A DNA stretch of 26,437 nt from an uncultured Dehalococcoidaceae bacterium. GTDB lineage: Bacteria; Chloroflexota; Dehalococcoidia; Dehalococcoidales; RBG-16-60-22. The position numbers and the translations under genes are program-made. Position 1 is the stretch's first letter; each line of letters starts with the position of its first letter. Shown here one piece after another: positions 147 to 12,526 of this stretch. Under the pieces are notes generated by a model. That model was given only the letters and a program-made list of their open reading frames with translations. It was not told the origin of the DNA and did no database searches. Where the stretch lies: positions 1-26,437 of the forward strand of contig CAYVPT010000001.1 in assembly GCA_964453865.1 (NCBI GenBank), given 5' to 3'.

Positions 147-1076
147 TTACACATTGTCCGCATTAAAAGCCATCACGTCGTCGATGGATTCCGCATCACA
201 AAAAAGCATGACAAGCCTGTCGATGCCCAGGGCGACGCCGCCGCATTCGGGGAGATTTGGGAGGGCTTCGAGGAATTTACGGGGCAGATCCATGCGTTGC
301 CGGCGTTCCCGGTAGATGGTGTCGATAGCTTTCCGGAAACGGGTCTCCTGTTCTATAACATCGGTAAGCTCGCTGTAGGCGTTGGCCAGTTCCAGTCCGC
401 CGATAAAAACCTCGGCCCGTTCGGCAACGCCGGTATTATCCGGCTTCAAGCGTGCCAGAGAAGCCGCGGCGGCGGGGTAGTCAAGTAATACGGTGGGGCG
501 GTCGGGGGGAAAGCCGGGGAGTACCTTGGTGACGAAATCCGTATCGAATCTCAGGGAGTCGTATACGGCGACGGGGTCCCAGCCGGCGGAGTTGAGGAAG
601 GCATCTCTTACCGTCACTCTGGGCCAGGGCCTTCCGATGTCTATAGCCTGCCCTTGATATTCTATCGTGTTCTCAAAACCGAGTTTGACGGCCAGCGTCG
701 TTACCAGGTCTTCGATATTGAGGATAATATCTTCGTAATCGGCGCCGGCGCGGTACCATTCCAGCATAATGAATTCCGGATTGTGCCACCGGCCCCGTTC
801 GCCTTTGCGGAAACAGTGACTGAACTGGAATATCCGGTCGTACCCGGCCGCCAGAAGGCGTTTCATGTGGAGCTCGGGTGATGTTGCCAGAAACCAGCTC
901 TCGCTTTGGAAAGGGACGATGAATTCCTCCGGGGCGACGGCAGGAGAACGTACGGGGGTCTCTACCTCCAGGAAGTCCCGTTCTTTGAAAAAAGCGCGGA
1001 TGTACTCATAAATCAGAGCCCGCCGCTGTAGATTGGATTGCCGGCGGGCAAGTCGCTGATTATCATCCTCCACCAT
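147..1076 (-). CDS. epmA: EF-P lysine ligase EpmA (GenX/PoxA), a class II LysRS catalytic-domain paralog
   Basis: 309 aa with TSPELHMKRLLAAG, FRKGERGRWHNPEFIMLEWY and GGVALGIDRL motifs. It lacks the anticodon-binding domain and starts 3 nt after the efp stop. Confidence 0.92.
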   Translation of the reverse strand: MVEDDNQRLARRQSNLQRRALIYEYIRAFFKERDFLEVETPVRSPAVAPEEFIVPFQSESWFLATSPELHMKRLLAAGYDRIFQFSHCFRKGERGRWHNPEFIMLEWYRAGADYEDIILNIEDLVTTLAVKLGFENTIEYQGQAIDIGRPWPRVTVRDAFLNSAGWDPVAVYDSLRFDTDFVTKVLPGFPPDRPTVLLDYPAAAASLARLKPDNTGVAERAEVFIGGLELANAYSELTDVIEQETRFRKAIDTIYRERRQRMDLPRKFLEALPNLPECGGVALGIDRLVMLFCDAESIDDVMAFNADNV

Positions 1077-1079
1077 GCG

Positions 1080-1646
1080 TCACTTTCCCGTAGAGACCCG
1101 TTCAATATAGCTGCCGGTGCGCGTGTCCACCTTGATAACATCGCCCACTTTGATGAAAGAAGGTGTGTCTATGCGGGCGCCCGTTTCCACGACAGAGGAT
1201 TTACTCTGCGGCGTAATCGTCGCCGTCTTGGTGGATATATCGCTTTCGATTACTTCCAGGTCGACGGTTATCGGCAGGGTGACATCGATAGGCTCATCGC
1301 CGTGCATCAGCATGGTCACCCCCATGCCTTCCTTGAGGAAATTCTTTTTATCGCCGAGTAACTCTGCGGAAATGCCGTGCTGTTCGTATGTTTCGGTATT
1401 CATGAAGATATACTGGTCGCCTTCATGGTAGAGGTATTGCTCGTCCTGGGTTGACAGGCTGGCGGTATCTACCTTTTCTCCGGAACGATAGGTACGGTCG
1501 ATAACGCCGCCGTCGCGAATGTTTTTCAGTCTGAAGCGATAAACGGAGCGTCCCTTCCCTGGCTTGGTGAATTCGGCTTCCTCTACATTGTAAAGCACGC
1601 CGTCGATGATTATCTTGGTGTTCTTGCGTACGCTGGAAATTTCCAT
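1080..1646 (-). CDS. efp: Elongation factor P
   Basis: KPGKG loop, YRSGEKV, YIFMNTETYEQ and VIKVDTRTGSYIERV motifs. The start is set at ATG 1646 behind AAGGAG, rather than the ORF-track start at 1670. Confidence 0.93.
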   Translation of the reverse strand: MEISSVRKNTKIIIDGVLYNVEEAEFTKPGKGRSVYRFRLKNIRDGGVIDRTYRSGEKVDTASLSTQDEQYLYHEGDQYIFMNTETYEQHGISAELLGDKKNFLKEGMGVTMLMHGDEPIDVTLPITVDLEVIESDISTKTATITPQSKSSVVETGARIDTPSFIKVGDVIKVDTRTGSYIERVSTGK

Positions 1647-1705
1647 TGAGGCTCCTTGTGGATTCGGCAATTTTTCATCAGGTAAATTCGGGACATGTTC
1701 ATATA

Positions 1706-1714
1706 ATTATAGCA
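1706..1714 (-). promoter_or_regulatory. Extended -10 promoter candidate for efp-epmA
   Basis: The minus strand reads TGCTATAAT (TGn-TATAAT) about 60 nt upstream of the efp ATG. Confidence 0.45.
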
Positions 1715-1773
1715 CTACTTTCTTTGTGTGAAAAAGAGTGTTTATTAAATTTCTATTTGCTTGGTATTTTATA

Positions 1774-1862
1774 CTCACCCCTTTATCCCCCTCTTCAGCC
1801 AGAATAACCAATGGTTTATACGATGTTACAGGCTGGAGAGGGGTCAGGGGTGAGGTTTGAAC
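1774..1862. repeat. Long imperfect palindrome, C-rich/G-rich REP-like family
   Basis: ctcacccct..ccccctcttcagcc pairs with ggctggagagggg..aggggtgag. The reverse complement of 1831-1862 matches 22408-22439 at 31 of 32 nt. Confidence 0.8.
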
Positions 1863-1918
1863 TTATCAAACAGATGAATTTAGGGACTATAATCAATATT
1901 TTATATCTACTCGGGTCT

Positions 1919-3991
1919 TCAGAGCATATGCCCAATTCTGGCCCCGTCGGCAATGGCGTTGACTATCAGGCCGGGCTCGCCGCAGCTGCCGATGTTATGT
2001 ATTTCCGGTGCTTTTCCTTCCAGGCTTTTCATTATTTCGTCGTTCGGCAGGTAAGGCAGGGTCACCAGAACAGTATCGGCTTCCAGGGTCTTCTTCTCGC
2101 CTTCCCGGGTGGTAATGACCAGACCTTTGTCAGTCACTTCCTCGTATTTAGCTTCGGTGTACCGGGGTATGCCTTTTTTATCCAGCCAGGGGAGAAAGCG
2201 CATCAGGTCCTCGACGGGTATGCCGTCGCCCAGCTCTTTTTCCGTATGCACGATGGTCACCCGGCGACCGCGCTTGATGAGGAATTCGGCGGTCTCGCAG
2301 CCGTGGATAGCCCCACCGACAATGACCACCCTTTTCCCGATAGGCATCCAGATTTTGGTCAGTCGCTGCAGCATCTTGACGCCGAAAAATTTCATGAAAA
2401 AGCGGAGCTGCCGGTGTAATTTCGAGCTGTTAAGGACACTACCGCGATTACTGCCGGGTATCTCGAGGTAGCTGGGTACAGCCCCCGCCGCCAGCACCAG
2501 CACATCCGGTTTAACGGCGTCGATATCACCGACGCCCACTTCTTTACCGAGATTAACGGCGACCTTTTCTTTGGTCATCTGGGTCTTGAAATACTCCACC
2601 AGAGCCAGGAAGTCGTCTCTCTCAACGCCCTTGAGCATTGCCGCCGTGGGCACCAGGCCGCCCAGCCGCGGATTTTTCTCATGGAGGCTTACCTCGTGTC
2701 CCCGATGCGCTGCCATTCGCGCCGCCTCCAGGCCGGAAGGCCCGCCGCCTATCACCATGATTTTTTTCTTTTTCCCGGCGGGTTTGAATGTGAATTCTCT
2801 CTCTTTGCCCAGGGAAGCATTGACCATGCATTCGAGGAGTTGGTTCTTATTGCGTACATCGATGCAGTGAAGGCAGCCGGTGCAGGGTCGGATATCATCG
2901 GTCTTGCCGGCGATTACCTTGTTGGGCAACTCGGGGTCGGCCAGCAGGCGCCGGGTCATGCCCACGAAGTCCAGCTTTCCCTGCTGTAAATATTCCTCGC
3001 CGATGACGGGGTCGAGCCGGCAGGCACAGAAGACCGGAACCCTAACCACCTTCTTGACGGCCTCGGTGAGGGGGACCAGAGCCCCCTTGCCCTGGCGGCT
3101 CCAGTCCAGATCTTTGGGCAAATCGTCCGGCGGCTCGGGATAGAACATCTTTTCCGGCTGAATGAGCCCGTCGCGGTGATGGTAGCTGTGGGCGCGGCAC
3201 TGGATGGCATCGGCGCCGGCTTCCGCCAGCAGCCTGGCCAGTTCTACGCCTTCCTCAATGGTGGTGCCTTTGGGATGCCGGTATTCCACGATATTTATCA
3301 GGCAGGTGACCGGGAAGTCCTGGCCCAGTCGTTTTTTTATCTCCCGCACGATATCGCCCATGAAGCGGACGCGGTTTTCCAGGGTTTGAGGACCGTATTC
3401 ATCCTCGCGTTTATTCCATACCCGCGATAGAAACGTATTGATCTGGTGGCAGGTGCCCCCGTTTACCTCAACGCCGTCATAACCGGCTTTTGCGGCCCGT
3501 TCGGCGGCTTTCGCCCAGATATCGATGTATTCCAGTACCTCGTCGTGACTCATCCCTCGGGGAACAGCGAAACCCGGGCCGGGAAGCTCGGCCTCTGTCA
3601 GTGCCGAGGCGGCTTTGGTATCGCGCTTGGGCAGCAGTCCGGTGGGATTCCAGGGGCCGGCGTGCTGGAACTGGATAAACGCCGGGCAGCCTTGCTTGTG
3701 GATGACTTTAACCAGCTCGGCATAGCTGGGGATGTATTTATCGTCGTCAAGGTGGAACTGGACAGGCGGGTGCTGGACGCCCAGGGGATATTCGACGCCG
3801 CAGGACTCCGTAATGAGCAGTCCCACGCCGCCTTTAGCCATGGCTTCATAGTATGCCAGGGCTCTATCACCGACGTAGCCGGTCCGTTCTATGAAGGATG
3901 TACCGTTGGCGGTCTTTATCATGCGGTTGCGGGTGCGCACCCTGCCGATATAGGCCGGTTCGAGGAGTTTTTCAAATTGACTATGGCTCAT
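1919..3991 (-). CDS. NADH:flavin oxidoreductase, old-yellow-enzyme TIM barrel with 4Fe-4S and FAD domains (FadH/BaiCD/enoate-reductase-like architecture)
   Basis: 690 aa. N-terminal RNRMIK..GGVGLLITE, NKREDEYG, the Cys cluster CTGCLHC-x11-C, and two Rossmann motifs (GGGPSG, GGAIHG). Confidence 0.9.
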   Translation of the reverse strand: MSHSQFEKLLEPAYIGRVRTRNRMIKTANGTSFIERTGYVGDRALAYYEAMAKGGVGLLITESCGVEYPLGVQHPPVQFHLDDDKYIPSYAELVKVIHKQGCPAFIQFQHAGPWNPTGLLPKRDTKAASALTEAELPGPGFAVPRGMSHDEVLEYIDIWAKAAERAAKAGYDGVEVNGGTCHQINTFLSRVWNKREDEYGPQTLENRVRFMGDIVREIKKRLGQDFPVTCLINIVEYRHPKGTTIEEGVELARLLAEAGADAIQCRAHSYHHRDGLIQPEKMFYPEPPDDLPKDLDWSRQGKGALVPLTEAVKKVVRVPVFCACRLDPVIGEEYLQQGKLDFVGMTRRLLADPELPNKVIAGKTDDIRPCTGCLHCIDVRNKNQLLECMVNASLGKEREFTFKPAGKKKKIMVIGGGPSGLEAARMAAHRGHEVSLHEKNPRLGGLVPTAAMLKGVERDDFLALVEYFKTQMTKEKVAVNLGKEVGVGDIDAVKPDVLVLAAGAVPSYLEIPGSNRGSVLNSSKLHRQLRFFMKFFGVKMLQRLTKIWMPIGKRVVIVGGAIHGCETAEFLIKRGRRVTIVHTEKELGDGIPVEDLMRFLPWLDKKGIPRYTEAKYEEVTDKGLVITTREGEKKTLEADTVLVTLPYLPNDEIMKSLEGKAPEIHNIGSCGEPGLIVNAIADGARIGHML

Positions 3992-4011
3992 ATATACCTC
4001 GATTTTCTTCT

Positions 4012-4129
4012 GTCATTCCAGCCCCGTATCGGGGTACGGGGTAAACTCCAGCTGGAATCCAGCGGTGGGGAAAGGGTGTGGATTCTGGATCTCGGGCTGA
4101 ACTCGGGCTGAAGCCTGCGCCAGAATGAC
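4012..4129. repeat. Inverted doublet of GTCATT/AATGAC-type palindromic repeats (REPIN-like)
   Basis: Unit 4012-4062 (gtcattccagc...gctggaatccag) faces unit 4080-4129 (ggattctgg...ccagaatgac). Relatives lie at 12500-12526 and 23240-23290. Confidence 0.8.
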
Positions 4130-4155
4130 AATATTATTATCTTAAAGCTCAATAC

Positions 4156-5085
4156 TTAGCATAAATGCAGGAGCTCTTCCACGTACTTCATGGCAGGTTT
4201 GAGAGTCTCGATGGACTTGTCTAAAAGCTCTCGTTCGTCCGACTCGATATCCCACTCCTGAATCTCCCGTACGCCATTTTTCCCCAGGACGGTGGGCACG
4301 GACATGCTCAACGAATGACAGCCGTACTCGCCGTCCAGTACCACGGAACAGGGAATCATCTCACCCGTATTCTGGCTGATGGCGCGGCAAACGGCGGCAA
4401 TGCCTACGGCGGTGGTCCAGGCGGCGGTGCGTCCGGTCTTCTCTCTGAGTTCTTCCAGCAGTTTCTGTCCGTCAGGCACCTGCTGCCGGATTTTCCTTTT
4501 TATATCCTCACCGATTTTCACGGGTTTTCCGTCAACTTTAGCCGAACTGAAAAGCAGTACCTGGCTGTTGCCGTGTTCGCCGATAACCGTGCCGGCTACC
4601 CGGCTGCTCTCGACACCGAGTGCCTGTGCCAGCCTCATACGGAAGCGTATGGAGTCGTTGTATGAATAACCGAGAATCTTATGCCTGTCCAGCTCACAGC
4701 AGCGGTACATGGCGTAGTTCAGCGGGCACACGGGGTTGGTGGCGGTAAGCACCACCGCATCGGGGGAGTACTGCCTGATTTTTTTAGAGATATCCTGAAT
4801 GATAGGCAGGTTCTGGGGGAGTACCTCCATGCGTGAATGAGTAACCTGGGCGGAACCCGCGGCGACCAGTACTATATCCGATTCTTTCATGTCTGCGTAG
4901 TCGCCGGATCTCACCTGCATATCGCGTCCCGTCACTGCTGTTTCGATGTCCATAGCGTGAAGGTCCACCATGTCCTGACGCGGTGTGTCTATCAGCACCA
5001 GTTCGTCGGCCAGCCTGTTTACGGCGATACTGAAGGCGGCACAGGAACCGACATTGCCCGTGGCTCCAATTACTGTAATTTTCAT
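4156..5085 (-). CDS. Lactate/malate dehydrogenase superfamily enzyme, divergent, substrate unknown
   Basis: GATGNVG Rossmann motif, TNPV, DSIRFR (Asp168/Arg171 equivalents), GEHG (catalytic His) and a C-terminal SVPTVLGKNGV. Confidence 0.88.
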   Translation of the reverse strand: MKITVIGATGNVGSCAAFSIAVNRLADELVLIDTPRQDMVDLHAMDIETAVTGRDMQVRSGDYADMKESDIVLVAAGSAQVTHSRMEVLPQNLPIIQDISKKIRQYSPDAVVLTATNPVCPLNYAMYRCCELDRHKILGYSYNDSIRFRMRLAQALGVESSRVAGTVIGEHGNSQVLLFSSAKVDGKPVKIGEDIKRKIRQQVPDGQKLLEELREKTGRTAAWTTAVGIAAVCRAISQNTGEMIPCSVVLDGEYGCHSLSMSVPTVLGKNGVREIQEWDIESDERELLDKSIETLKPAMKYVEELLHLC

Positions 5086-5252
5086 ATATGTCCCTCAACC
5101 TGTATTTACGTAAAACGAATTAAAAACGAGAGAAAGATGCTTGTATATGTAATTATATAACATCCGGAGTATAGAATCGAATAGCAAAGGGCTGAAAAAA
5201 CGTGAAAATCAGTTATTCCATCTTCCGTTTTGAACGGGCATCATAAATCTTC

Positions 5253-6137
5253 TTACTTCTTTACTCCGAGCCATTTGGTATCGTGCTCGTTGGACAGACA
5301 TATCGCGGTGAATGCGTAGGGTTTATCCACCCTCCTGGTAATCAGTGGACAGTGTACGAATCCCTTGGGAGCGACGACCACGGTTGGAGTATCGAAGACG
5401 TGGATTTCCTGCTCCTCACCCATGGCTATCTCTATCTCCGCACCTAGGTAGTTCGGATTATCCGGGTCCATTCCTACGAATACCAGCGCCTCATCATTGG
5501 GATGAACGTGCGGGTCCTGCTCGTGCCAGGCGCCCACTCCGGTTTGGAAAGCCCAGGTAAAGTTCAGGTTAAAGCCCGGGGTATTTTTACCGCTCCAGAA
5601 ACCTATGAAGTCGGCGTTGCCGCCCCTGGTACGCTTCATGTCGTGCATTTCCATCCTGAGAATAGAGTCCCCGTACTTGTTGGCCAGCCGCGAACCTTTC
5701 TCGCGTTTGGTCAATTCGGTGGTCTTCTCTTCGGCATCGGTGGAAATCGCCAGGAAACCGAAAGGTTTGTCTACCTTCTTGGTAACGATGGGACAGTGCG
5801 ATACACCCGCCGGGAGAACGACTATCGACGGCGAGGCGATGATATGCTCTTCCCCCTCGTCTCCCATTGCCAGTTCCACTTCCGCTCCCAGGGTATTGGG
5901 ATTATCATAATCAAGCCCGGTGAAAACAAAGACCTCCCCGTAGGGATGGACGTGACCGTACTTGCCGCCGACACCCCACTGGCCTACTTTGTTGTGGTAT
6001 CCCCATACAAAGCTTATATTCAGCCCTTCAAGGTCGCTGCCCTTTGGCCAGGTAATGTACTCGGGCTTGCCGTTACCACCGGGCAGTTCGTTATAAACCA
6101 GTTTTTTTATAAAATGCCCGTATTTAGTGTCTACCAT
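5253..6137 (-). CDS. Uncharacterised tandem (double) cupin-fold protein
   Basis: Two internal repeats of HVHP-x2-E...LGAE(V/I)E..MG..E.H......V..P.G..HCP, matching cupin motifs 1 and 2 with 3-His-1-Glu ligands. Confidence 0.75.
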   Translation of the reverse strand: MVDTKYGHFIKKLVYNELPGGNGKPEYITWPKGSDLEGLNISFVWGYHNKVGQWGVGGKYGHVHPYGEVFVFTGLDYDNPNTLGAEVELAMGDEGEEHIIASPSIVVLPAGVSHCPIVTKKVDKPFGFLAISTDAEEKTTELTKREKGSRLANKYGDSILRMEMHDMKRTRGGNADFIGFWSGKNTPGFNLNFTWAFQTGVGAWHEQDPHVHPNDEALVFVGMDPDNPNYLGAEIEIAMGEEQEIHVFDTPTVVVAPKGFVHCPLITRRVDKPYAFTAICLSNEHDTKWLGVKK

Positions 6138-6182
6138 TCGCTTTTATTCTCCTTTATTTGTCTTACCCGCAATAATATAAAG

Positions 6183-7088
6183 CTAGGTTACATAGCCGCT
6201 GGGACCTTTGCCGGTGTGGCCCCAGGGGCGAACCACGGCAAATATCCAGGGTTTATCCTGCTTATTGACGATGACGGGACAGTGCGGATGCCGGGCGGGC
6301 TGTATGGCGACCGACGGCTTGGTGATGACGTGCTTCTCCATTTCCTTGCCCATGTACATCTCCACCTCCGCTCCCAGGTCGCTCAGGTCATCGGGGTCGG
6401 CTCCCATGAAAAGCAGGAACTCGGTATAGGGGTGCACGTGCGGTTTGTCGGGCACCGGGCCGAATCTATAGGGCGCCTTGTTCATGCTTTCGTAGGACAT
6501 GTGAAAATCGAAATCCTTGCCGCGAACATCCGTGATAGCGCCTTCGTGGGTATCTTGGTTGAGCGGGCCGTAGTGCCAGGGGCCGTTACGCGTGAAAGCT
6601 AGGTGCTGGACGTTTTCCCGGTACTTGGAGCGCATGAATTCGGCGTGTTTGCCGGGCTTATTACCAAGTTTAACCGTCTTGGCTTTTGTTTCCGGCGCCA
6701 GCGATATCGCCATAAAAATGAAACGGTCGTCCATTCTCTGGATAGTAGCCGGCATATGCGGCATGCCTTTGGGCACCGCTATAGCCGTCGATGTGGTAAT
6801 CATGTGAGTTTCCTTTTCCTTACCCAGGCAGAGCTCGATTTCCGCTCCCAGGTAGCCCATGTCATAGGTATCCAGCCCCATGGCTATCATCACCTGATCA
6901 TAGTCGTGCACCTCGGCTTCGTAGGGAGCCTGGCCTATTTTCCCGGCCGACCAGAACGAACCGTAGCGGATATTGACATCGTAGCCGAGGAATTTACCGT
7001 TCATCTCGGTGCCCTGCCGGAAAAGGCCTGGACCATAATCTTTAAAAGATAAGCTTTTCATCAGGTGTCCGTATTTTGTCTTTGCCAT
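6183..7088 (-). CDS. Uncharacterised tandem cupin-fold protein, paralog of the neighbouring gene
   Basis: Same two-domain motif pattern and the same TKYGH N-terminus as its neighbour. The start is set at ATG 7088 behind GGAGG. Confidence 0.75.
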   Translation of the reverse strand: MAKTKYGHLMKSLSFKDYGPGLFRQGTEMNGKFLGYDVNIRYGSFWSAGKIGQAPYEAEVHDYDQVMIAMGLDTYDMGYLGAEIELCLGKEKETHMITTSTAIAVPKGMPHMPATIQRMDDRFIFMAISLAPETKAKTVKLGNKPGKHAEFMRSKYRENVQHLAFTRNGPWHYGPLNQDTHEGAITDVRGKDFDFHMSYESMNKAPYRFGPVPDKPHVHPYTEFLLFMGADPDDLSDLGAEVEMYMGKEMEKHVITKPSVAIQPARHPHCPVIVNKQDKPWIFAVVRPWGHTGKGPSGYVT

Positions 7089-7170
7089 TTTCTGTATCCT
7101 CCGTTTAACCGTTTTGACCAAAGTATAACGTTTCATGCGATTAACTGCAACGCCGGATACTATTTATCTT

Positions 7171-7238
7171 CGGGATAAGCCGTGGATGATACGAGGGAGG
7201 TTTGGGTGGGAATAGATAACACACGAGGGGGGTGGTGG
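7171..7238 (+). repeat. G-rich dispersed repeat, copy A
   Basis: cgggataagccgtggatgatacgagggaggtttgggtgggaatagataac plus a cgaggggggtgg tail. Confidence 0.9.
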
Positions 7239-7246
7239 CTCTATTC

Positions 7247-7275
7247 TTGACAAATTTATAGCTGGCACGTATTAT
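7247..7275 (+). promoter_or_regulatory. Sigma70-type promoter
   Basis: TTGACA-N17-TATTAT immediately upstream of the ATG at 7284. Confidence 0.6.
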
Positions 7276-7283
7276 GGGAAAAC

Positions 7284-7988
7284 ATGATAAACAAGAACAA
7301 TATCTTCATCTATATCGCTCTGGTTATAACCCCAACAATTTTCCTGATTGTGGAACACTATACCCACATCGAGTTCCTGCTGCATCTGGCAGCCATACCC
7401 CTCGAGGTGCTGGTGGCGGTATTCATCGTCGAGATGTATCTCGAAAGCCGGCAGAAGAAGGAGAGACGGCGCCAATTGATGCACATCAAGAGCTGCATGT
7501 TCCGCCTGGAAATGCGTAACCTGTTCGTAGCCAATTTTATGGCTTTGAAATCGCCGCCTTTGACCATCGCCCTGATAAAAGCGGCCACCTTAGATGAACT
7601 TAAAAAGATGAGGGAGGATGCCAACAGCATCGAATACCAATCACTGGAAGCGATGGAGCCGGTTATCATGGAATACGTCGAAGCCCAGTCAGTATGGCGT
7701 AATTTCATGAATATCGCCCTGGATTACGGTTTTGACGATATCTTTCACGATATGGTATATATCCTGCATTTTATCAGCGACGTGAAGAGTTATAAAGAGA
7801 ATAATCCGGGTAAGCTGTTTATCCATAAAGCCGCCAGCCACGAGTTACTGATGCAGAAAGTAAAAAAGGTTCTGGGTGACGGCATACGCAAGTATCTGGA
7901 CTATGCGATAGAGCTCAAGGAACAACAGCCGGAACTCTTTGACGAAATAGTCGCCGATTACGAACTGGCTACCCATATAAGAAGCTAG
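7284..7988 (+). CDS. Hypothetical protein with two N-terminal transmembrane segments and a helical cytoplasmic domain
   Basis: 234 aa ORF with hydrophobic residues at about 7-24 and 30-53, followed by the basic stretch RQKKERRRQ. It has its own promoter. Confidence 0.75.
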   Translation: MINKNNIFIYIALVITPTIFLIVEHYTHIEFLLHLAAIPLEVLVAVFIVEMYLESRQKKERRRQLMHIKSCMFRLEMRNLFVANFMALKSPPLTIALIKAATLDELKKMREDANSIEYQSLEAMEPVIMEYVEAQSVWRNFMNIALDYGFDDIFHDMVYILHFISDVKSYKENNPGKLFIHKAASHELLMQKVKKVLGDGIRKYLDYAIELKEQQPELFDEIVADYELATHIRS

Positions 7989-8032
7989 CGGGGCGATATA
8001 ACGTGACCATAGTAATCAAGCTTGTAACTATG

Positions 8033-8164
8033 CTACTTCTTTGATGGGGGATTGTTGCCTCTCCCACCCCCAGATTGTTGGCCGGTCCTGCTGGGCCAAT
8101 TAGGATTACCGCCTTTTCCGCTTCCCTTGCCACCGCTCTTGTTTGCCCCACTACTTTTACTCAT
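8033..8164 (-). CDS. Small Gly/Ser/Lys-rich protein (43 aa), not in the ORF track
   Basis: AAGGAGG Shine-Dalgarno sequence 5 nt before ATG 8164. Manual translation gives MSKSSGANKSGGKGSGKGGNPNWPSRTGQQSGGGRGNNPPSKK, with a TAG stop at 8035-8033. Confidence 0.65.
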   Translation of the reverse strand: MSKSSGANKSGGKGSGKGGNPNWPSRTGQQSGGGRGNNPPSKK

Positions 8165-8363
8165 CGTTTCCTCCTTACACAAATGTATTTTTATAATGTA
8201 AGATCAATAAATATGTGGATTTTACTACCTTACTGAAAAAATGTCAGTAGTCAATAATAAAGATAATAATATGCCAAATGGCATGGGTATATGCGTTGAA
8301 TTCTATCTAAGGATCAATCCCGCCTTGTCTTTATTTGCAGTTACTGAAAAAGGGATGTAACGG

Positions 8364-8414
8364 TTGACATCACTGGCTATGTAAGCTATAATAGTTATAT
8401 ACATAGCCACAGTG
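8364..8414 (+). promoter_or_regulatory. Consensus sigma70 promoter with overlapping operator palindrome (toxin-antitoxin autoregulation site)
   Basis: TTGACA (8364-8369)-N17-TATAAT (8387-8392). The inverted repeat ggctatgta (8375-8383)/tacatagcc (8400-8408) flanks the -10, with an outer cactg/cagtg pair. Confidence 0.8.
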
Positions 8415-8424
8415 GAGGTATTCA

Positions 8425-8673
8425 ATGCCGGGTACAGGTAGCAGGTCAAGATATTTCCTGGATGTAGAACCAGAATTACGCAATCGCTTTAAGGCTTTCG
8501 CGGCTTTGCAGGGTAAGACGATGAAGGAGTGGCTAACCGAGGCTATCATCGCCAAGCTGGAGGATGAAATTGACGCAGCAGAAGGGCTGGCAACTTTAGC
8601 TGACACTGAAGGTACAATGCCATTGGCAGATTATCTTGAATCACGTAAAGACAAGGATAGCCAGTCTGAGTGA
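8425..8673 (+). CDS. Antitoxin with ribbon-helix-helix-like N-terminus and acidic C-terminus
   Basis: 82 aa (RYFLDVEPELRNRFKAFAALQGKTMKEWLTEAI) with a GGAGG RBS. Its TGA overlaps the ATG of the RelE-like gene. Confidence 0.75.
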   Translation: MPGTGSRSRYFLDVEPELRNRFKAFAALQGKTMKEWLTEAIIAKLEDEIDAAEGLATLADTEGTMPLADYLESRKDKDSQSE

Positions 8674-8930
8674 TGTATCGGATTGAATTAAGGCGGAAGG
8701 CTCAGCGTTCTTTAGATAGACTGCCCAAAGGTGATTTTGACGCAGTTATCAGCGAAATAAAGAAATTAGCCGATTCACCAAGACCGAGAGGGGTTGAAAA
8801 AATCAAACGCGCCGGTCTGTGGCGTATCCGGCAGGGAGATTACCGGATAGTCTACAGCATTGATGAAGGTCAAAAGACCGTTACAATTTTGCGTATCGGA
8901 CACCGCCGGGAAATATACAGGTCTTTTTAA
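8673..8930 (+). CDS. Type II toxin, RelE/ParE (RelE/StbE) family
   Basis: YRIEL, LADSPRPRGVEK, WRIRQGDYRIVYSID and IGHRREIYR motifs. Confidence 0.9.
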   Translation: MYRIELRRKAQRSLDRLPKGDFDAVISEIKKLADSPRPRGVEKIKRAGLWRIRQGDYRIVYSIDEGQKTVTILRIGHRREIYRSF

Positions 8931-8972
8931 TTGGAGGCTGAGTCACTGAAAATATCCGTACTAGGATAGACT

Positions 8973-9000
8973 AAAAAAGGGGAGCTTTTCGGCTCCCCTT
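8973..9000 (-). terminator. Rho-independent terminator, probably bidirectional
   Basis: 9-bp stem aaggggagc/gctcccctt with a 6-nt loop. It has a T-tract on the minus strand and a weaker T-rich tail on the plus strand. Confidence 0.85.
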
Positions 9001-9022
9001 CTGTTTTTATTTAATCGGTTAA

Positions 9023-9050
9023 GCTACCATTGAATAAACATCGGGATGTC
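9023..9050 (-). repeat. Displaced copy of the dnaN 3' end (attR-like)
   Basis: gctaccattgaataaacat (9023-9041) is identical to 10591-10609, and the match extends to 28 nt with 3 mismatches. The minus strand encodes P-M-F-I-Q-W-stop, like dnaN. Confidence 0.85.
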
Positions 9051-9244
9051 AACTCGTTTGGACTTAAATTGTCCTGCTGAGGCAGGACTACCTATTAAAG
9101 TAATTGCTTAAATTGATATGCCTCCTGCGTCCAGTTTTATGTTCGACTTGAGAATCAGAGAGGGTGGCATTAATGGTCAAATAAACCTCTTTAGTTATCA
9201 TTCTTGATACCAAACGAGGTGCTAACAAGCTATCTATTACTATA

Positions 9245-9273
9245 TTGACACATGATGTAAAGTAAACTAAAGT
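9245..9273 (+). promoter_or_regulatory. Sigma70-type promoter for the flavoprotein pair
   Basis: TTGACA-N17-TAAAGT. The taaagt hexamer is tandemly repeated around the -10. Confidence 0.55.
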
Positions 9274-9329
9274 GTACATTACTAGACTCTGGTGATACTA
9301 CTGCTGAAAAATGGTTAAGGAGGAAGGTG

Positions 9330-9881
9330 ATGAAGGTTACCATCCTAAACGGAAACCCTGGCGTAAGCGACACCAGGTTTGATGATTATTTAAATAAGCT
9401 CTCCGATGCCCTTTCGTCAGACAGCAATGAGATAACTGTCTTTACATTGAGGGATATGGACCTGAAATACTGCCGTGGTTGCTGGGGGTGCTGGGTGAAG
9501 ACACCCGGGGAGTGTGTGGTGAAAGATGATACACGCGAGATACGCCGCCAGTGCATACATTCTGATTTAGTAATTTTTGCATCACCTGTTATCATGGGAT
9601 TTACCAGTGCCCTACTCAAGAGAGCACACGAAAGACTTCTACCGCTGATTCATCCTTACTTTGAACTCGTAGATGGCGTAGTACGCCACTTAGCAAGGTA
9701 TGATAAATATCCGCTTATGGCACTTCTTCTGGAAAAGGGGGAAGACGTTGATGAGGAAGACATTAAAATCATCTCCGATATTTATAGACGGGACGCTATA
9801 AATTTTAAGACTTCATTTTGTTTTACCAGGTTCACCAGCGATCCCACAGAGGAGGTAGCAAATGAAATTAACGGTCTTTAA
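9330..9881 (+). CDS. Iron-sulfur flavoprotein / NADPH-dependent FMN reductase family (flavodoxin fold)
   Basis: MKVTILNGNP, the CRGCWGCWVKTPGEC 4Fe-4S motif and DLVIFASPV. An AAGGAGG RBS precedes the ATG. Confidence 0.85.
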   Translation: MKVTILNGNPGVSDTRFDDYLNKLSDALSSDSNEITVFTLRDMDLKYCRGCWGCWVKTPGECVVKDDTREIRRQCIHSDLVIFASPVIMGFTSALLKRAHERLLPLIHPYFELVDGVVRHLARYDKYPLMALLLEKGEDVDEEDIKIISDIYRRDAINFKTSFCFTRFTSDPTEEVANEINGL

Positions 9882-10530
9882 CGGCTCCCCGCGTGGTAAA
9901 AGCAGTAACACCAGAGTTTTTATGGAACATTTCCTGAACGGTTTCACGACAACAGAGGGGAATACATACGAGATAGCCTATCTGAAAGATGTGAAAGATA
10001 GGGATACCTTTATCAGGCTATTCCAAGAGGCAGAGCAAGTGATACTGGCATTGCCTCTATATGCGGATGCCATGCCGGCGGCGGCGAAAGACTTTATAGA
10101 GTTGTTGGAACCGCTTTGCCAGAGGGAAGGCAATCCCGACATCGGATTTTTTGTGCAGTCCGGGTTTCCAGAACCAGAGCACTCCCGTTATCTGGAGCGG
10201 TACTACGTGAAACTGGCAAAACGCCTGGGGTGCCGGTACAAAGGCACGATAATCAGGGGCGGCGGTGAGAACCTAAGGATAATGCCAAGGTTGATGAACC
10301 GGAGACTGTTAAAAGCCTTCTACAAGCTTGGTGAGGCATTTGGCAAAACCGGGGAATTTGACAAAAAGATGGTGGCTAACCTGACCAAACCGGAGAGATT
10401 GTCCAAACTGATGTTCTGGATTATGAGAATTTTAGGCCCCAAAATGTACTGGAACCCGATGCTAAAGAAAAACAATGCCTATGAAAAGCGCTTCGACAAG
10501 CCTTATGCGGTTGAAGTGAAGACTGACTGA
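9862..10530 (+). CDS. NAD(P)H-dependent oxidoreductase, flavodoxin-fold family
   Basis: FNGSPRGKSSNT, LALPLYADAMP and QSGFPE motifs. It overlaps the upstream gene by 20 nt. Confidence 0.82.
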   Translation: MKLTVFNGSPRGKSSNTRVFMEHFLNGFTTTEGNTYEIAYLKDVKDRDTFIRLFQEAEQVILALPLYADAMPAAAKDFIELLEPLCQREGNPDIGFFVQSGFPEPEHSRYLERYYVKLAKRLGCRYKGTIIRGGGENLRIMPRLMNRRLLKAFYKLGEAFGKTGEFDKKMVANLTKPERLSKLMFWIMRILGPKMYWNPMLKKNNAYEKRFDKPYAVEVKTD

Positions 10531-10571
10531 GAAAGAAGAAAGAGGGAGGCTTATGTTACCTGGCCCCCCTT
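10531..10571 (-). terminator. Terminator-like hairpin just downstream of dnaN, inside the islet
   Basis: The minus strand reads aggggggc..gcctccct followed by the pyrimidine tail ctttcttctttc. The stem is imperfect. Confidence 0.4.
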
Positions 10572-10591
10572 GCCGCTATCAGCTGATGTTG

Positions 10592-11725
10592 CTACCATTG
10601 AATAAACATGGGCATGACGACGTGGATGTAGTTTTCCGTGCCGACCGGGCGCAGGAGGCCGGGACTGGAGGGATTGTTGGTTTCCAGGGCTACCTGGGCT
10701 TCCTCAAGGACGCTTAAGACATCAATCAGGTATTTACCGTTAAAGGCAATCTTGGACTCGTCGCCTTCAACGGTGGCGTCGATTTCGCCGACATCGTCAC
10801 CAATCTCTTCGGAGCGGGCGGAAACGGAAAGCTTGCCGGGATTGGTCTCGCTCCCCGGTGTTATTATCAGGCGGACGGTGCCACTGCCGTCCCGGGCAAA
10901 GATAGAGGCTGTCCGGGTGGCCCGGAGGAAATCGGCGACGCTGACAATCATGCGGGTGGTATAGCTCTGGGGGATAATCTGGGAGTAGTTGGGGAAGGTG
11001 CCCTGGACCAGCTGCGATACCAGTTCGACACTCTTAAGGCGGAAGAGTACCTGGCTTTTATCGGGATTAAGGGTGATGCTTACGGTTTCTTCCTCATCGG
11101 CCATGAGACGGTTCAGCTCGGATAACGTACGCGCCGGAATAATAACCTCGGTCTTCTCTTTTATCTCATCGGCGATGGGCAGCTTATAGACAGCCAAACG
11201 AAAGCCGTCAGCCGCGGCCAGCGTTAATGTCTTGCCTTCAAACTGGGCGCAGACGCCGGTAAGGACCGGACGTGATTCTTCTGTGGCGGCGGCGAAGGCG
11301 ACCTGCTCGATTGCCTGACGCAGGGCTTCGACTTCGACAGTGGTGGTAATGCCTTCATCGACGCTGGGAATCGGGGGGAATTCCTTGGCATCGACGCCGC
11401 TGATGCGGGCTTCGAACCGGGCGCATTTAAGACCCAGGGTCTTGGTCTGCGGCGAAAGCTGAACGGAAATCGTGTCACTGGGTAGAGAACTGACGAATTC
11501 GGTGAGAAGGCGGGCAGGTACGGTGATGGTCCCTTCGTCCTCTATCTTTACGCCTATCCAGCAACTGATGGCCATTTCCAGGTTGGTAGCCACCAGTTTC
11601 AATCGACCATCATCGGTAGCCAGCAGGACATTGTTTGTTATGGGCAGCGTCGTCTTGGTGGCGACCGCCCTGCCGACGATACCGAGTCCCCGGTTCAGAT
11701 TCTCCTGAAGACATGATAATTTCAT
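10592..11725 (-). CDS. dnaN: DNA polymerase III beta sliding clamp
   Basis: 377 aa with ATNLE, LAAADGFRLA, GTFPNYSQIIP, IAFNGKYLIDVL and YIHVVMPM motifs. Confidence 0.97.
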   Translation of the reverse strand: MKLSCLQENLNRGLGIVGRAVATKTTLPITNNVLLATDDGRLKLVATNLEMAISCWIGVKIEDEGTITVPARLLTEFVSSLPSDTISVQLSPQTKTLGLKCARFEARISGVDAKEFPPIPSVDEGITTTVEVEALRQAIEQVAFAAATEESRPVLTGVCAQFEGKTLTLAAADGFRLAVYKLPIADEIKEKTEVIIPARTLSELNRLMADEEETVSITLNPDKSQVLFRLKSVELVSQLVQGTFPNYSQIIPQSYTTRMIVSVADFLRATRTASIFARDGSGTVRLIITPGSETNPGKLSVSARSEEIGDDVGEIDATVEGDESKIAFNGKYLIDVLSVLEEAQVALETNNPSSPGLLRPVGTENYIHVVMPMFIQW

Positions 11726-11775
11726 GATGCACCCCCAAATTCTATTGGTGGACTAGTATACAACATAATCCGGTT

Positions 11776-12258
11776 CTATTCAAGCTCTATAGTGCCGCTC
11801 TTACCGCCGCTTTTGCGTACCAGGCGGATGTTCTCTATTTTCATACCGCGGTCGACGGCCTTGCACATATCGTATATCGTCAGGGCGGTAACCGTGGTGG
11901 CGGTCAACGCCTCCATCTCCACGCCGGTTTTACCGGTACTCTCGACGGTGGCGGTAATTTCTATGGTGCTGCTGGCTTCATCGGGGTTGAAATCGATAAT
12001 GACATTACCGATGAGCAACGGATGGCAAAGCGGAATAAGGTCAGGCGTGCGCTTGGCGGCCATGATACCGGCCAGTTTGGCAACGGAGAGGACATCGCCC
12101 TTTTTAGTGCCACCCTGCTGGATTGACTTAAAGGTGGCTGGCTGCATCCGTACGATGCCCCTGGCCACAGCCACGCGGGCGGTATCCGCCTTGGCGGTGA
12201 CATCCACCATCTTGGGTCGACCGGCATCGTCCAGGTGGGTCAGCTTTTTATCAGCCAT
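11776..12258 (-). CDS. moaC: Cyclic pyranopterin monophosphate synthase MoaC
   Basis: [34 protein letters not shown] and IYDMCKAVD motifs. Confidence 0.97.
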
Positions 12259-12355
12259 ATAACACCTTTTTAAGGAAACAATTCGTAGCTGGCTAGCTTT
12301 GAATTATTTTTCGAGTTATGTTAATTAAATGCCTGGAGGAGATATTTATTATTTA

Positions 12356-12437
12356 CCTCACCCCCTGTATCCCCCTCTCCTTACGAGGCTGGGAGAGGGA
12401 GAGTGGGAAGTCCTGGAAGAGGGGCTTCGCCCCTCTC
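12356..12437. repeat. Composite C-rich/G-rich palindrome with a gaggggcttcgcccctc module
   Basis: Same architecture as the reverse complement of 22494-22600 and as 23021-23097. Confidence 0.75.
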
Positions 12438-12499
12438 AGACGCCCCCTGTGTTTGTATCTTCCTTACCCCGATCTCTCCCATCTGGGGAGAGGGCTTAT

Positions 12500-12526
12500 C
12501 TGGATTCCCGCCTTCGCGGGAATGAC
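12500..12526. repeat. ATTCCC-N8-GGGAAT palindrome (dRS3-like REP)
   Basis: ctggattcccgccttcgcgggaatgac. It is preceded by another hairpin, ctctcccatctggggagag. Confidence 0.8.

Follow-up and report, generated by a model that had tools for sequence, protein, structure and literature searches.

A 1.6-kb islet with two flavoprotein genes separates the essential sliding-clamp gene dnaN from its native terminator in an uncultured Dehalococcoidaceae bacterium (contig CAYVPT010000001.1). The whole contig of 26,437 nucleotides (nt), referred to here as the window, was analysed. It is concluded, with a probability of roughly 0.85, that the islet (approximately positions 9044-10611) belongs, as a derivative without recombinase, to a family of islands for which the dnaN 3' end is the insertion site used by large serine recombinases (LSRs). 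The LSR island family with this landing site, which is found across Dehalococcoidales, is previously undescribed; elements of this kind are already known. Full-text literature searches, of which the coverage is incomplete, yielded no paper tying dnaN to a serine recombinase or to an island attachment site.

A duplicated dnaN tail borders the islet

The dnaN open reading frame (ORF) in the window is intact and ends with MPMFIQW*, and direct repeats derived from its 3' end flank the islet. The initial annotation had placed a 19-nt tail sequence, GCTACCATTGAATAAACAT, at both 9023-9041 and 10591-10609. This sequence indeed occurs exactly twice in the 26.4-kb window, in direct orientation, and none of 100 dinucleotide-preserving shuffles matched it, even when 3 mismatches were allowed. 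The similarity said to continue beyond the 19 nt, with its mismatches on the gene-proximal side, was also recovered: a repeat search extended the pair to 31 nt with 87 % identity and 4 mismatches, all on that side. Translated on the minus strand, the proximal copy reads ..VVMPMFIQW*, the true end of dnaN, and the distal copy ..VDIPMFIQW*. With a position weight matrix (PWM) built from distal dnaN-tail copies of related genomes, attL scored 32.4 and attR 36.5, and no decayed tail copy besides these two was detected in the window. The features are the following.

10592-11725, minus strand: dnaN, DNA polymerase III beta sliding clamp, 377 amino acids (aa), the target gene (Pfam DNA_pol3_beta, DNA_pol3_beta_2 and DNA_pol3_beta_3)
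10586-10636, minus strand: attL, composed of the dnaN half-site, the central CC (10611-10612) and the P' half-site of the element; holds the proximal repeat 10591-10609
10567-10605, plus strand: stub of an LSR gene 3' end, ..PLPLSADVATIE*, the distal part of the P' arm (alignment with loci L068 and L035)
10539-10571, minus strand: islet hairpin followed by a C/U-rich tract, the probable replacement dnaN terminator (-20.1 kcal/mol, z = -2.3)
9862-10530, plus strand: cargo gene 2, protein of 222 aa with a flavodoxin-like fold, FMN_red type (Pfam FMN_red/Flavodoxin_2)
9327-9881, plus strand: cargo gene 1, FMN_red flavoprotein of 184 aa, likely start ATG at 9330 (Pfam FMN_red/Flavodoxin_2)
9245-9273, plus strand: promoter-like TTGACA-17-TAAAGT (consensus scan, 10/12 positions)
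9018-9069, minus strand: attR, composed of the P half-site of the element, ..GAGTTGACATC, the central CC (9043-9044) and the native tail B'; holds the distal repeat 9023-9041
8973-9000, both strands: displaced native dnaN terminator, bidirectional, which also ends parE (-20.9 kcal/mol on the minus strand, z = -4.8, then U6)

Both junctions were found in Logan contigs from independent salt-marsh metagenome runs. Three contigs span attL (X1, 10363-10669; X2, 10194-10624; X7, 10482-10632) and three span attR (X3, 8945-9299; X4, 8793-9238; X5, 8938-9088), with at most 3 differing letters in each and none in five of the six. The duplication is therefore not an assembly artefact. The strong minus-strand terminator announced about 22 nt past the distal copy and the islet's own hairpin, promoter and two flavoprotein genes were all confirmed, the islet hairpin being weaker than the native terminator. 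The islet is of foreign-type composition: it is AT-richer than its surroundings, with a GC content of 0.45 vs 0.56 in dnaN, and the GC content at third codon positions is 0.45-0.59 vs 0.64-0.70 in core genes.

Pfam searches of the islet and a tblastn search of the contig detected no recombinase gene in the islet, in which both att sites are kept. The ends of the islet lack terminal inverted repeats (repeat search), no transposase was found in it (Pfam), and among its genes, which are the two flavoprotein genes only, Pfam detected no phage structural or lysis functions. An Rfam search of positions 6500-12500 of the window gave nothing credible.

The dnaN 3' end is hypervariable in Dehalococcoidales

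For comparison, 80 Dehalococcoidales loci with a DnaN of 74-88 % aa identity were collected in a scan of GTDB species representatives (comparison loci and contigs are given below by L numbers). The region upstream of dnaN is rigid, moaC being present in all 71 loci with enough flanking sequence and moaA in 65. Downstream of dnaN no gene is conserved among the 80 loci and the DNA is hypervariable. Synteny of the flavoprotein pair with dnaN would have spoken against an insertion; the pair is found near dnaN in 0/80 loci, and parDE and the other window genes have no counterpart there either. In 12 of the 80 loci the contig breaks off no more than ~40 nt from the dnaN stop, which is a signature of a strain-variable junction.

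The PWM scan revealed 34 extra dnaN-tail copies downstream of dnaN, none upstream and 2 inverted. When occupancy was counted in loci with at least 3 kb of downstream flank, 20 of 35 harboured one or more extra copies, several of them two or three. Elements with dnaN tails form tandem arrays. The distance between tail copies varies from 239 to 9,062 nt with a median of ~1.5 kb, and approximately 10 arrays hold single-gene islets that have P-arm families in common and unrelated cargo.

The native terminator hairpin, GAAGGGGAGCnGAAAnGCTCCCCTTTT, is located 20-26 nt past the dnaN stop in L029, L055 and L075, and past the distal copy in the window, L002 and L033. The former three loci, with dnaN directly before the conserved terminator, show the empty-site configuration that had been predicted for the clade, here in related species and not in an isogenic strain.

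Some further tail copies deserve mention. In L033 a family-C copy consisting of P arm plus tail (3270-3299, minus strand, score 37.2) is inverted and lies 2.8 kb upstream of dnaN; it is the sole strong copy outside the downstream region, and either a secondary site or a past inversion could account for it. Mini-scars were observed at L019 9323-9380 and L025 10344-10377 and just past the dnaN stop in L051 and L072. Some of these have a family-B P arm starting ~15 nt past the dnaN stop, others a degenerate second tail, ATGAATGTGCAGTGGTAA, ~40 nt past it. They look like the near-total deletion of an element between its two ends.

Serine recombinases abut dnaN and decay in place

The commonest protein encoded downstream of dnaN is an LSR with Resolvase, Recombinase and Zn_ribbon_recom domains, for which the nearest solved structures are those of the SPbeta SprA/YokA, TP901-1 and A118 integrases. 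Its gene is always convergent with dnaN. It abuts the dnaN 3' end in nine loci, namely L092, L093 and L095, as well as L012, L018, L030, L037, L074 and L078, in which the LSR stop codon is located approximately 20-29 nt inside dnaN; with stubs included, LSRs abut dnaN in more than 20 loci. One dnaN-adjacent LSR has more than 1,500 database relatives at E < 1e-30, some of them beside other genes. Of four intact relatives on long contigs, three (69 %, 71 % and 47 % identical) overlap a dnaN 3' end.

In L092, L094 and L095 the elements are complete: the LSR is intact and a tail copy is present on either side. The L092 element (8.5 kb) carries the LSR, a gene with a Phage_integrase domain and a Prim-Pol/PriCT_1 gene, and is followed by a second LSR element; the L095 element measures 9.2 kb; the L094 element (8 kb) carries Prim-Pol/D5_N and adjoins a dnaN 3' fragment. 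Larger islands with a recombinase and the same duplication, as the initial annotation had anticipated, thus exist, and its view of the islet as a minimal or decayed member of a dnaN-targeting family is supported, with the specification that the recombinase is of the serine and not the tyrosine type and that an LSR stub has been kept. The 440-aa Phage_integrase-domain protein of L092 (8682-10004), encoded beside the LSR, may serve as a second recombinase or as a directionality partner, or may be cargo. In L094 genuine coding sequence from the dnaN 3' end, 60 nt or more in length, forms the LSR-side boundary (11538-11567) and the neighbouring gene is not dnaN but an aldehyde:ferredoxin oxidoreductase gene, which suggests a rearrangement that moved a dnaN fragment, or a decoy site.

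The cargo of other elements is of an ordinary accessory kind, with genes for ABC and TRAP transporters, LuxR/MalT regulators, type I and EcoRI-like restriction-modification systems, Abi proteins, a cysteine/ThiF/XdhC cluster, heliorhodopsin, CetZ tubulin, a radical-SAM enzyme and hydrolases. Heliorhodopsin (L069 5562-6362) and a CetZ-type tubulin (L014 11219-12454) were observed as single-gene islets between dnaN and a distal tail. Phage genes were absent from the examined ORFs of related elements, and a scan of IMG/VR with one LSR returned no relatives. Tyrosine recombinases were absent from the 25 families listed, of 89 matched, in a Pfam census of 73 islet ORFs, and also from the individually scanned ORFs.

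The LSRs at dnaN form a graded series. Intact, full-length enzymes have 490-572 aa. Proteins of 330-390 aa without the catalytic Resolvase domain (L087-L089, L091 and all 40 relatives of the L035 subtype) represent a middle stage, C-terminal stubs of 46-230 aa (L011, L021, L033, L035, L045, L060, L064, L068) a late stage, and a stub of ~12 codons in the window the final one. For this last stub, the 35 nt that follow the dnaN stop read ..PLPLSADVATIE* on the antisense strand, in alignment with the 3' ends of the LSR genes in L068 and L035 (..ILPSSTDVTTIAQTSA*). Because these ~12 codons of an LSR 3' end remain, the window islet is regarded as a deletion derivative. Stubs would persist because dnaN would be damaged by deletion of the LSR gene portion with which it overlaps or is contiguous. 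The origin of integrase-less islets is clearly exemplified by this series. Run X5 yielded a contig of 1,145 nt, taken to represent a sister strain, that shares 95.7 % identity with the window dnaN over the covered part, 10579-11020, and departs from the window exactly 13 nt past the stop, where it reads ..IPIEIQPFPSSADVATIE. Judged from this sequence, it carries an LSR 3' end with the P' arm of the window.

The flavoprotein cassette is a unit

The two cargo genes overlap by 20 nt and constitute a conserved two-gene module, for which 448 homologues from various phyla were found. The closest homologues of cargo gene 2 (79-86 % identical) are always paired with gene 1. Copies of the cassette with 84-86 % DNA identity were found in other neighbourhoods on the JGI (Joint Genome Institute) contigs L083, L084, L085 and L086, and the TTGACA and TAAAGT hexamers are invariant in these four and the window. 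The pair in L085, which sits behind another element, lies between two tail copies of the same strand, one of the P-arm type (PWM 31.2) and one that is weaker (18.9); L083 has one tail copy at the corresponding end (18.6). Homology between these cassettes and the window covers the hairpin, part of which is conserved in L083, and the short P' stub, and halts inside the att copy. As read from these alignments, a minimal LSR-less cassette exists in at least three array contexts. The three contexts are compatible with mobilisation in trans, and also with an outward displacement of the cassette by later insertions of other elements at dnaN.

Element-side arms and the crossover point

To the left of the distal copies there is no dnaN sequence. 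Instead, 30-nt arms are present that fall into families common to genomes with unrelated cargo. Family A (..TACGCATGGAAAGGCAAACATCCCG) is found in L009, L014, L021, L023, L031, L036, L050 and L054; families B and C are characterized by ..ATGTTACGATGAAAACACAGACATCCCC and ..ATAGTGCAAGAGAATCAGACATCCCG, respectively. CA(G/A)ACATCC is common to all arm families, being present in 27 distal copies. The P arm of the window attR resembles this consensus and groups with the arm of L002.

For the crossover analysis attP was reconstructed for 26 elements. The strongest dyad centre lies between both C's of the Pro codon (AACATC-CC-GATGTT), with a score of 0.438 vs a background of 0.258 +/- 0.033, approximately 5.5 standard deviations higher. 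All reconstructed sites have CC, a non-palindromic dinucleotide, at the centre, and symmetry amounts to 58-96 % at offsets 2-6 and 9. Since this is the layout expected for an LSR site, strand exchange likely takes place at the CC of the Pro codon in M-P-M, i.e. at 10611-10612 and 9043-9044. The predicted attB would read dnaN..ATGCC/GATGTTTATTCAATGGTAGCTTAACCGATT.. and the predicted attP ..GAGTTGACATCC/CATGTTTATTCAATGGTAGCAACATCAGC...

The proposed crossover lies 2-3 nt further into dnaN than the 19-nt repeat. In relatives, 21 of 27 attL/attR pairs differ at 1-7 wobble positions of the 18-nt tail. The repeat itself was rejected as the crossover core, as most attL/attR pairs differ within it and the dyad centre is outside it. 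The sequences suggest that it probably is the half-site by which the element rebuilds M-F-I/V-Q-W*. Perfectly identical 18-nt tails occur in 6 of 27 own pairs, including that of the window (22 %), vs 2.6 % of cross-locus pairs (permutation p = 0.009).

Origin of the islet

The following scenario is proposed. An ancestral element composed of an LSR gene and the flavoprotein cassette would have integrated by recombination between its attP and the attB in dnaN, with strand exchange at the Pro-codon CC of ..M-P-M-F-I/V-Q-W*. As its P' half-site mimics the last six codons plus the stop, dnaN would have been rebuilt and have gained a new hairpin, and the native tail with its terminator would have been displaced by 1,568 bp. 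The LSR gene would later have been deleted from the inside, and only the part overlapping or abutting dnaN survived because it could not be lost. Neither hybrid site looks damaged, so that a cognate LSR, acting in trans or from a neighbouring element, could still excise the islet.

Several observations weigh against this scenario. A tblastn search found no LSR in the islet or anywhere else on the 26.4-kb contig, and for the P'-arm subtype of the window no full-length LSR was found among 40 database relatives, all of which lack the Resolvase domain. An isogenic empty site, an excision product or a circle junction was not found in the low-depth Logan contigs that were searched; those of 8 salt-marsh runs contained neither a precise 1,568-nt skip nor a circle junction. 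An exact scan of 241 million metagenome contigs with the 19-mer yielded two short contigs only, and no empty site or attP. The position of the crossover is based on symmetry alone. Finally, both window copies share the rare Ile codon ATT at the position where most relatives have GTN. This is not explained by a simple 2-bp LSR crossover unless attP was identical to attB beforehand or the copies were homogenised later; it needs an element that was already adapted to the host lineage, or subsequent gene conversion or homogenisation.

The searches also returned some other sequences. On the 1.1-kb contig L081 a P-arm-type distal copy, ACAGATATCCCC + ATGTTTATTCAATGGTAG, was observed (1028-1057, minus strand, PWM 40.4). 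It is the sole other real match of the 19-mer, so that the rare Ile-codon tail exists in another array too; the match in L082 is probably due to chance. A joint of 9001 to 10605 in a contig of run X4 belongs to a different organism and is not the att x att product. This contig reads ..ENYIHVVMPM followed by the terminator hairpin, lacks the F-I-Q-W* tail and has two outer flanks unlike the window; possible explanations are a broken tail, an odd member of an array or a chimeric unitig.

Rather than a remnant, the islet might be an actively trans-mobilised mini-element of cargo and two half-sites, which LSRs from other loci would carry from one dnaN array to another. This is considered rather unlikely, although several observations agree with it. 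The half-sites look intact, with the central CC, a consensus P arm and a perfect 19-nt tail, and the minimal cassette with its short P' stub is present, 84-86 % identical, in at least three contexts. The median islet of ~1.5 kb and the ~10 arrays of single-gene islets with common P-arm families would suit such movement, and an LSR 3' end with the same P' arm is located next to a 95.7 % identical dnaN on the X5 contig, in salt marsh as well. However, the low-depth Logan contigs hold no junction evidence of movement, the order in L085 is explicable by a newer insertion at dnaN, cargo orientation is mixed and the cassettes have their own promoters, and the LSR decay series accounts for integrase-less islets unaided. 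A related proposal is that the dnaN 3' end is an LSR-driven cassette platform, analogous to an integron, on which units are captured, stacked, shuffled and lost by LSRs that an occasional full element provides in trans. This appears improbable, more so than the mobility of this islet. If it were true, the units, often of a single gene, would each end in a conserved recombination site of ~45-50 nt (P arm plus dnaN-tail mimic), with heliorhodopsin, CetZ tubulin, the radical-SAM enzyme, a hydrolase and the flavoprotein pair as cargo examples, and the window islet would be a live cassette and not a dead remnant.

It is likewise doubtful that the block of dnaN tail, islet and attR was inherited vertically, or by homologous recombination, from a relative in which it had long been integrated. 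The cassette copies are only 84-86 % identical and hence old, the LSR is almost wholly lost, and 19-nt identity including the rare ATT is what gene conversion or homologous exchange is expected to produce. The pair is however near dnaN in none of the 80 species-level relatives, and this explanation concerns only the route into the present genome; an origin by LSR att x att recombination is not disputed by it. Other mechanisms, i.e. a tyrosine integrase, a transposon with target-site duplication or a chance or illegitimate local duplication, are very improbable. The Phage_integrase-domain gene beside the LSR in L092 is the one finding in their favour. The islet ends lack terminal inverted repeats, a target-site duplication would be shorter than 19-31 nt, chance does not account for the repeat, the listed families include no tyrosine recombinase while LSRs or their stubs are at dnaN in more than 20 loci, and different genomes have conserved element-side arms. 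Tyrosine integrases, transposons and prophages were rejected as candidates: the islet has no inverted repeats at its ends and no transposase, the examined ORFs include no phage genes, and the recombinases in relatives are of the serine type.

Comparison with known systems

Among described systems, the ssrA genomic islands (ssrA-GIs) of Dehalococcoides come closest. These harbour a CcrB-like serine recombinase of 540 aa, DsiB, on the reverse strand beside attL; 20-bp repeats of the target 3' end flank the islands, with a conserved non-target motif beside the distal repeats (McMurdie et al. 2011, PMC3146451). The ssrA-GIs occur in tandem arrays and have low GC, and islands without an integration module have been read as cis-mobilisable (McMurdie et al. 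2011, PMC3146451). The dnaN islands, likened to them by description, share the class (Dehalococcoidia), a recombinase of ~500-540 aa by attL, repeats of ~20 bp from a single-copy essential gene, a distal element-side motif, tandem arrays, module-less islands and low GC. They differ in that the target is the protein-coding dnaN instead of the tmRNA gene, and the recombinase ORF overlaps its target by 20-29 nt, with six codons to rebuild. Furthermore, neither a DsiA-like small recombinase nor the six-gene DsiA/RecF/ParB/Mom module was seen in the dnaN islands, complete elements carry Prim-Pol/PriCT or D5_N genes, and the islets are mostly very small, often with a single gene.

The closest analogue in a protein-coding gene is the staphylococcal cassette chromosome (SCC), with SCCmec as an example. 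LSRs integrate SCC in the last codons of rlmH (orfX) and restore this gene, and direct repeats and composite or tandem arrays are found. The ccr-less pseudo-SCC (psiSCC) elements are flanked by att sites and can be moved by Ccr in trans. Common to SCC/psiSCC and the dnaN islands is the landing of an LSR in the 3' end of a housekeeping-protein gene that is restored. The phylum and target are different, a single LSR replaces the ccrAB pair, and the dnaN islets are smaller (median ~1.5 kb); the mobility of psiSCC is known, whereas the dnaN islets are known here from sequence alone. A similar fate is seen in the cis-mobilisable elements (CIMEs) of the ICESt1/ICESt3 family at the 3' end of fda, att-flanked integrase-less remnants that are mobilisable by accretion with an incoming element. 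The dnaN islet too is att-flanked, lacks an integrase and is located at the 3' end of a housekeeping gene; the tyrosine integrase and conjugative partners of CIMEs were not seen here. By analogy, the islet may be said to resemble a CIME or a psiSCC.

Arrays of small, often single-gene units at a fixed chromosomal platform, each ending in a conserved site, recall integrons. However, no IntI or tyrosine recombinase was found on the 26.4-kb contig and the recombination sites are dnaN-tail mimics, not attC hairpins; the cargo is present in both orientations with its own promoters, and the recombinase, where there is one, is part of the element instead of the platform. Prophages with serine integrases also use protein-coding genes, as in SPbeta/spsM, A118/comK and Bxb1/groEL1, in which the target is interrupted. 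The dnaN elements share the enzyme class and nearest structures (SPbeta SprA/YokA, TP901-1, A118) with them but rebuild their target, have no phage genes in the examined ORFs and gave no relative in the IMG/VR scan.

Relevance of the dnaN landing site

The essential replication gene dnaN is here the attachment site of a large and diversified family of serine recombinases. The Met and Trp codons of the M-P-M-F-V-Q-W* tail have no synonyms. In the Escherichia coli clamp, residues of the C-terminal tail form part of the partner-binding pocket. The dnaN tail would be a near-invariant landing pad across species, with each element forced to carry working last six codons. In uncultured Dehalococcoidales the dnaN 3' end is a major hotspot of plasticity, occupied in at least 57 % of the sufficiently flanked genomes. 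The recurrent assembly breakpoint at dnaN (12/80 contigs) matters for the completeness of metagenome-assembled genomes and for tracing accessory genes. The natural attB/attP pairs and the intact LSRs of L092, L093 and L095 are candidates for recombinase toolkits.

Neighbouring DNA in the window

Directly beyond the displaced terminator a second low-GC segment (7140-9022, GC 0.446) was observed, which may be an older decayed island. It harbours a ParD/ParE toxin-antitoxin pair (8425-8930), a 234-aa protein without Pfam match (7284-7988) and a small Gly/Ser/Lys-rich ORF (8033-8182, minus strand). As no dnaN-tail copy bounds this segment, it is not assignable to the mechanism of the islet. In four metagenome runs a purine-rich stretch at 7172-7230 has a contig depth 10-50x higher than that of its flanks and loose ends at either side; it probably is low-complexity or repeated sequence.

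Positions 5253-7136 encode two tandem paralogous proteins of 294 and 317 aa without Pfam match. Each looks internally duplicated, with a cupin-like unit of ~150 aa and H-x-H-P...G-A-E-x-E motifs, and single-unit relatives are encoded downstream of dnaN in 7 other loci. The two leftmost genes of the window (147-1670) have homologues with 68-70 % aa identity at L036 13148-14650 and L031 20337-20651, located at most 0.35 kb past the distal att copy in L036 and 9.7 kb downstream of dnaN in L031. In view of these homologues near dnaN arrays, the window region 1700-10590 may be accreted variable DNA.

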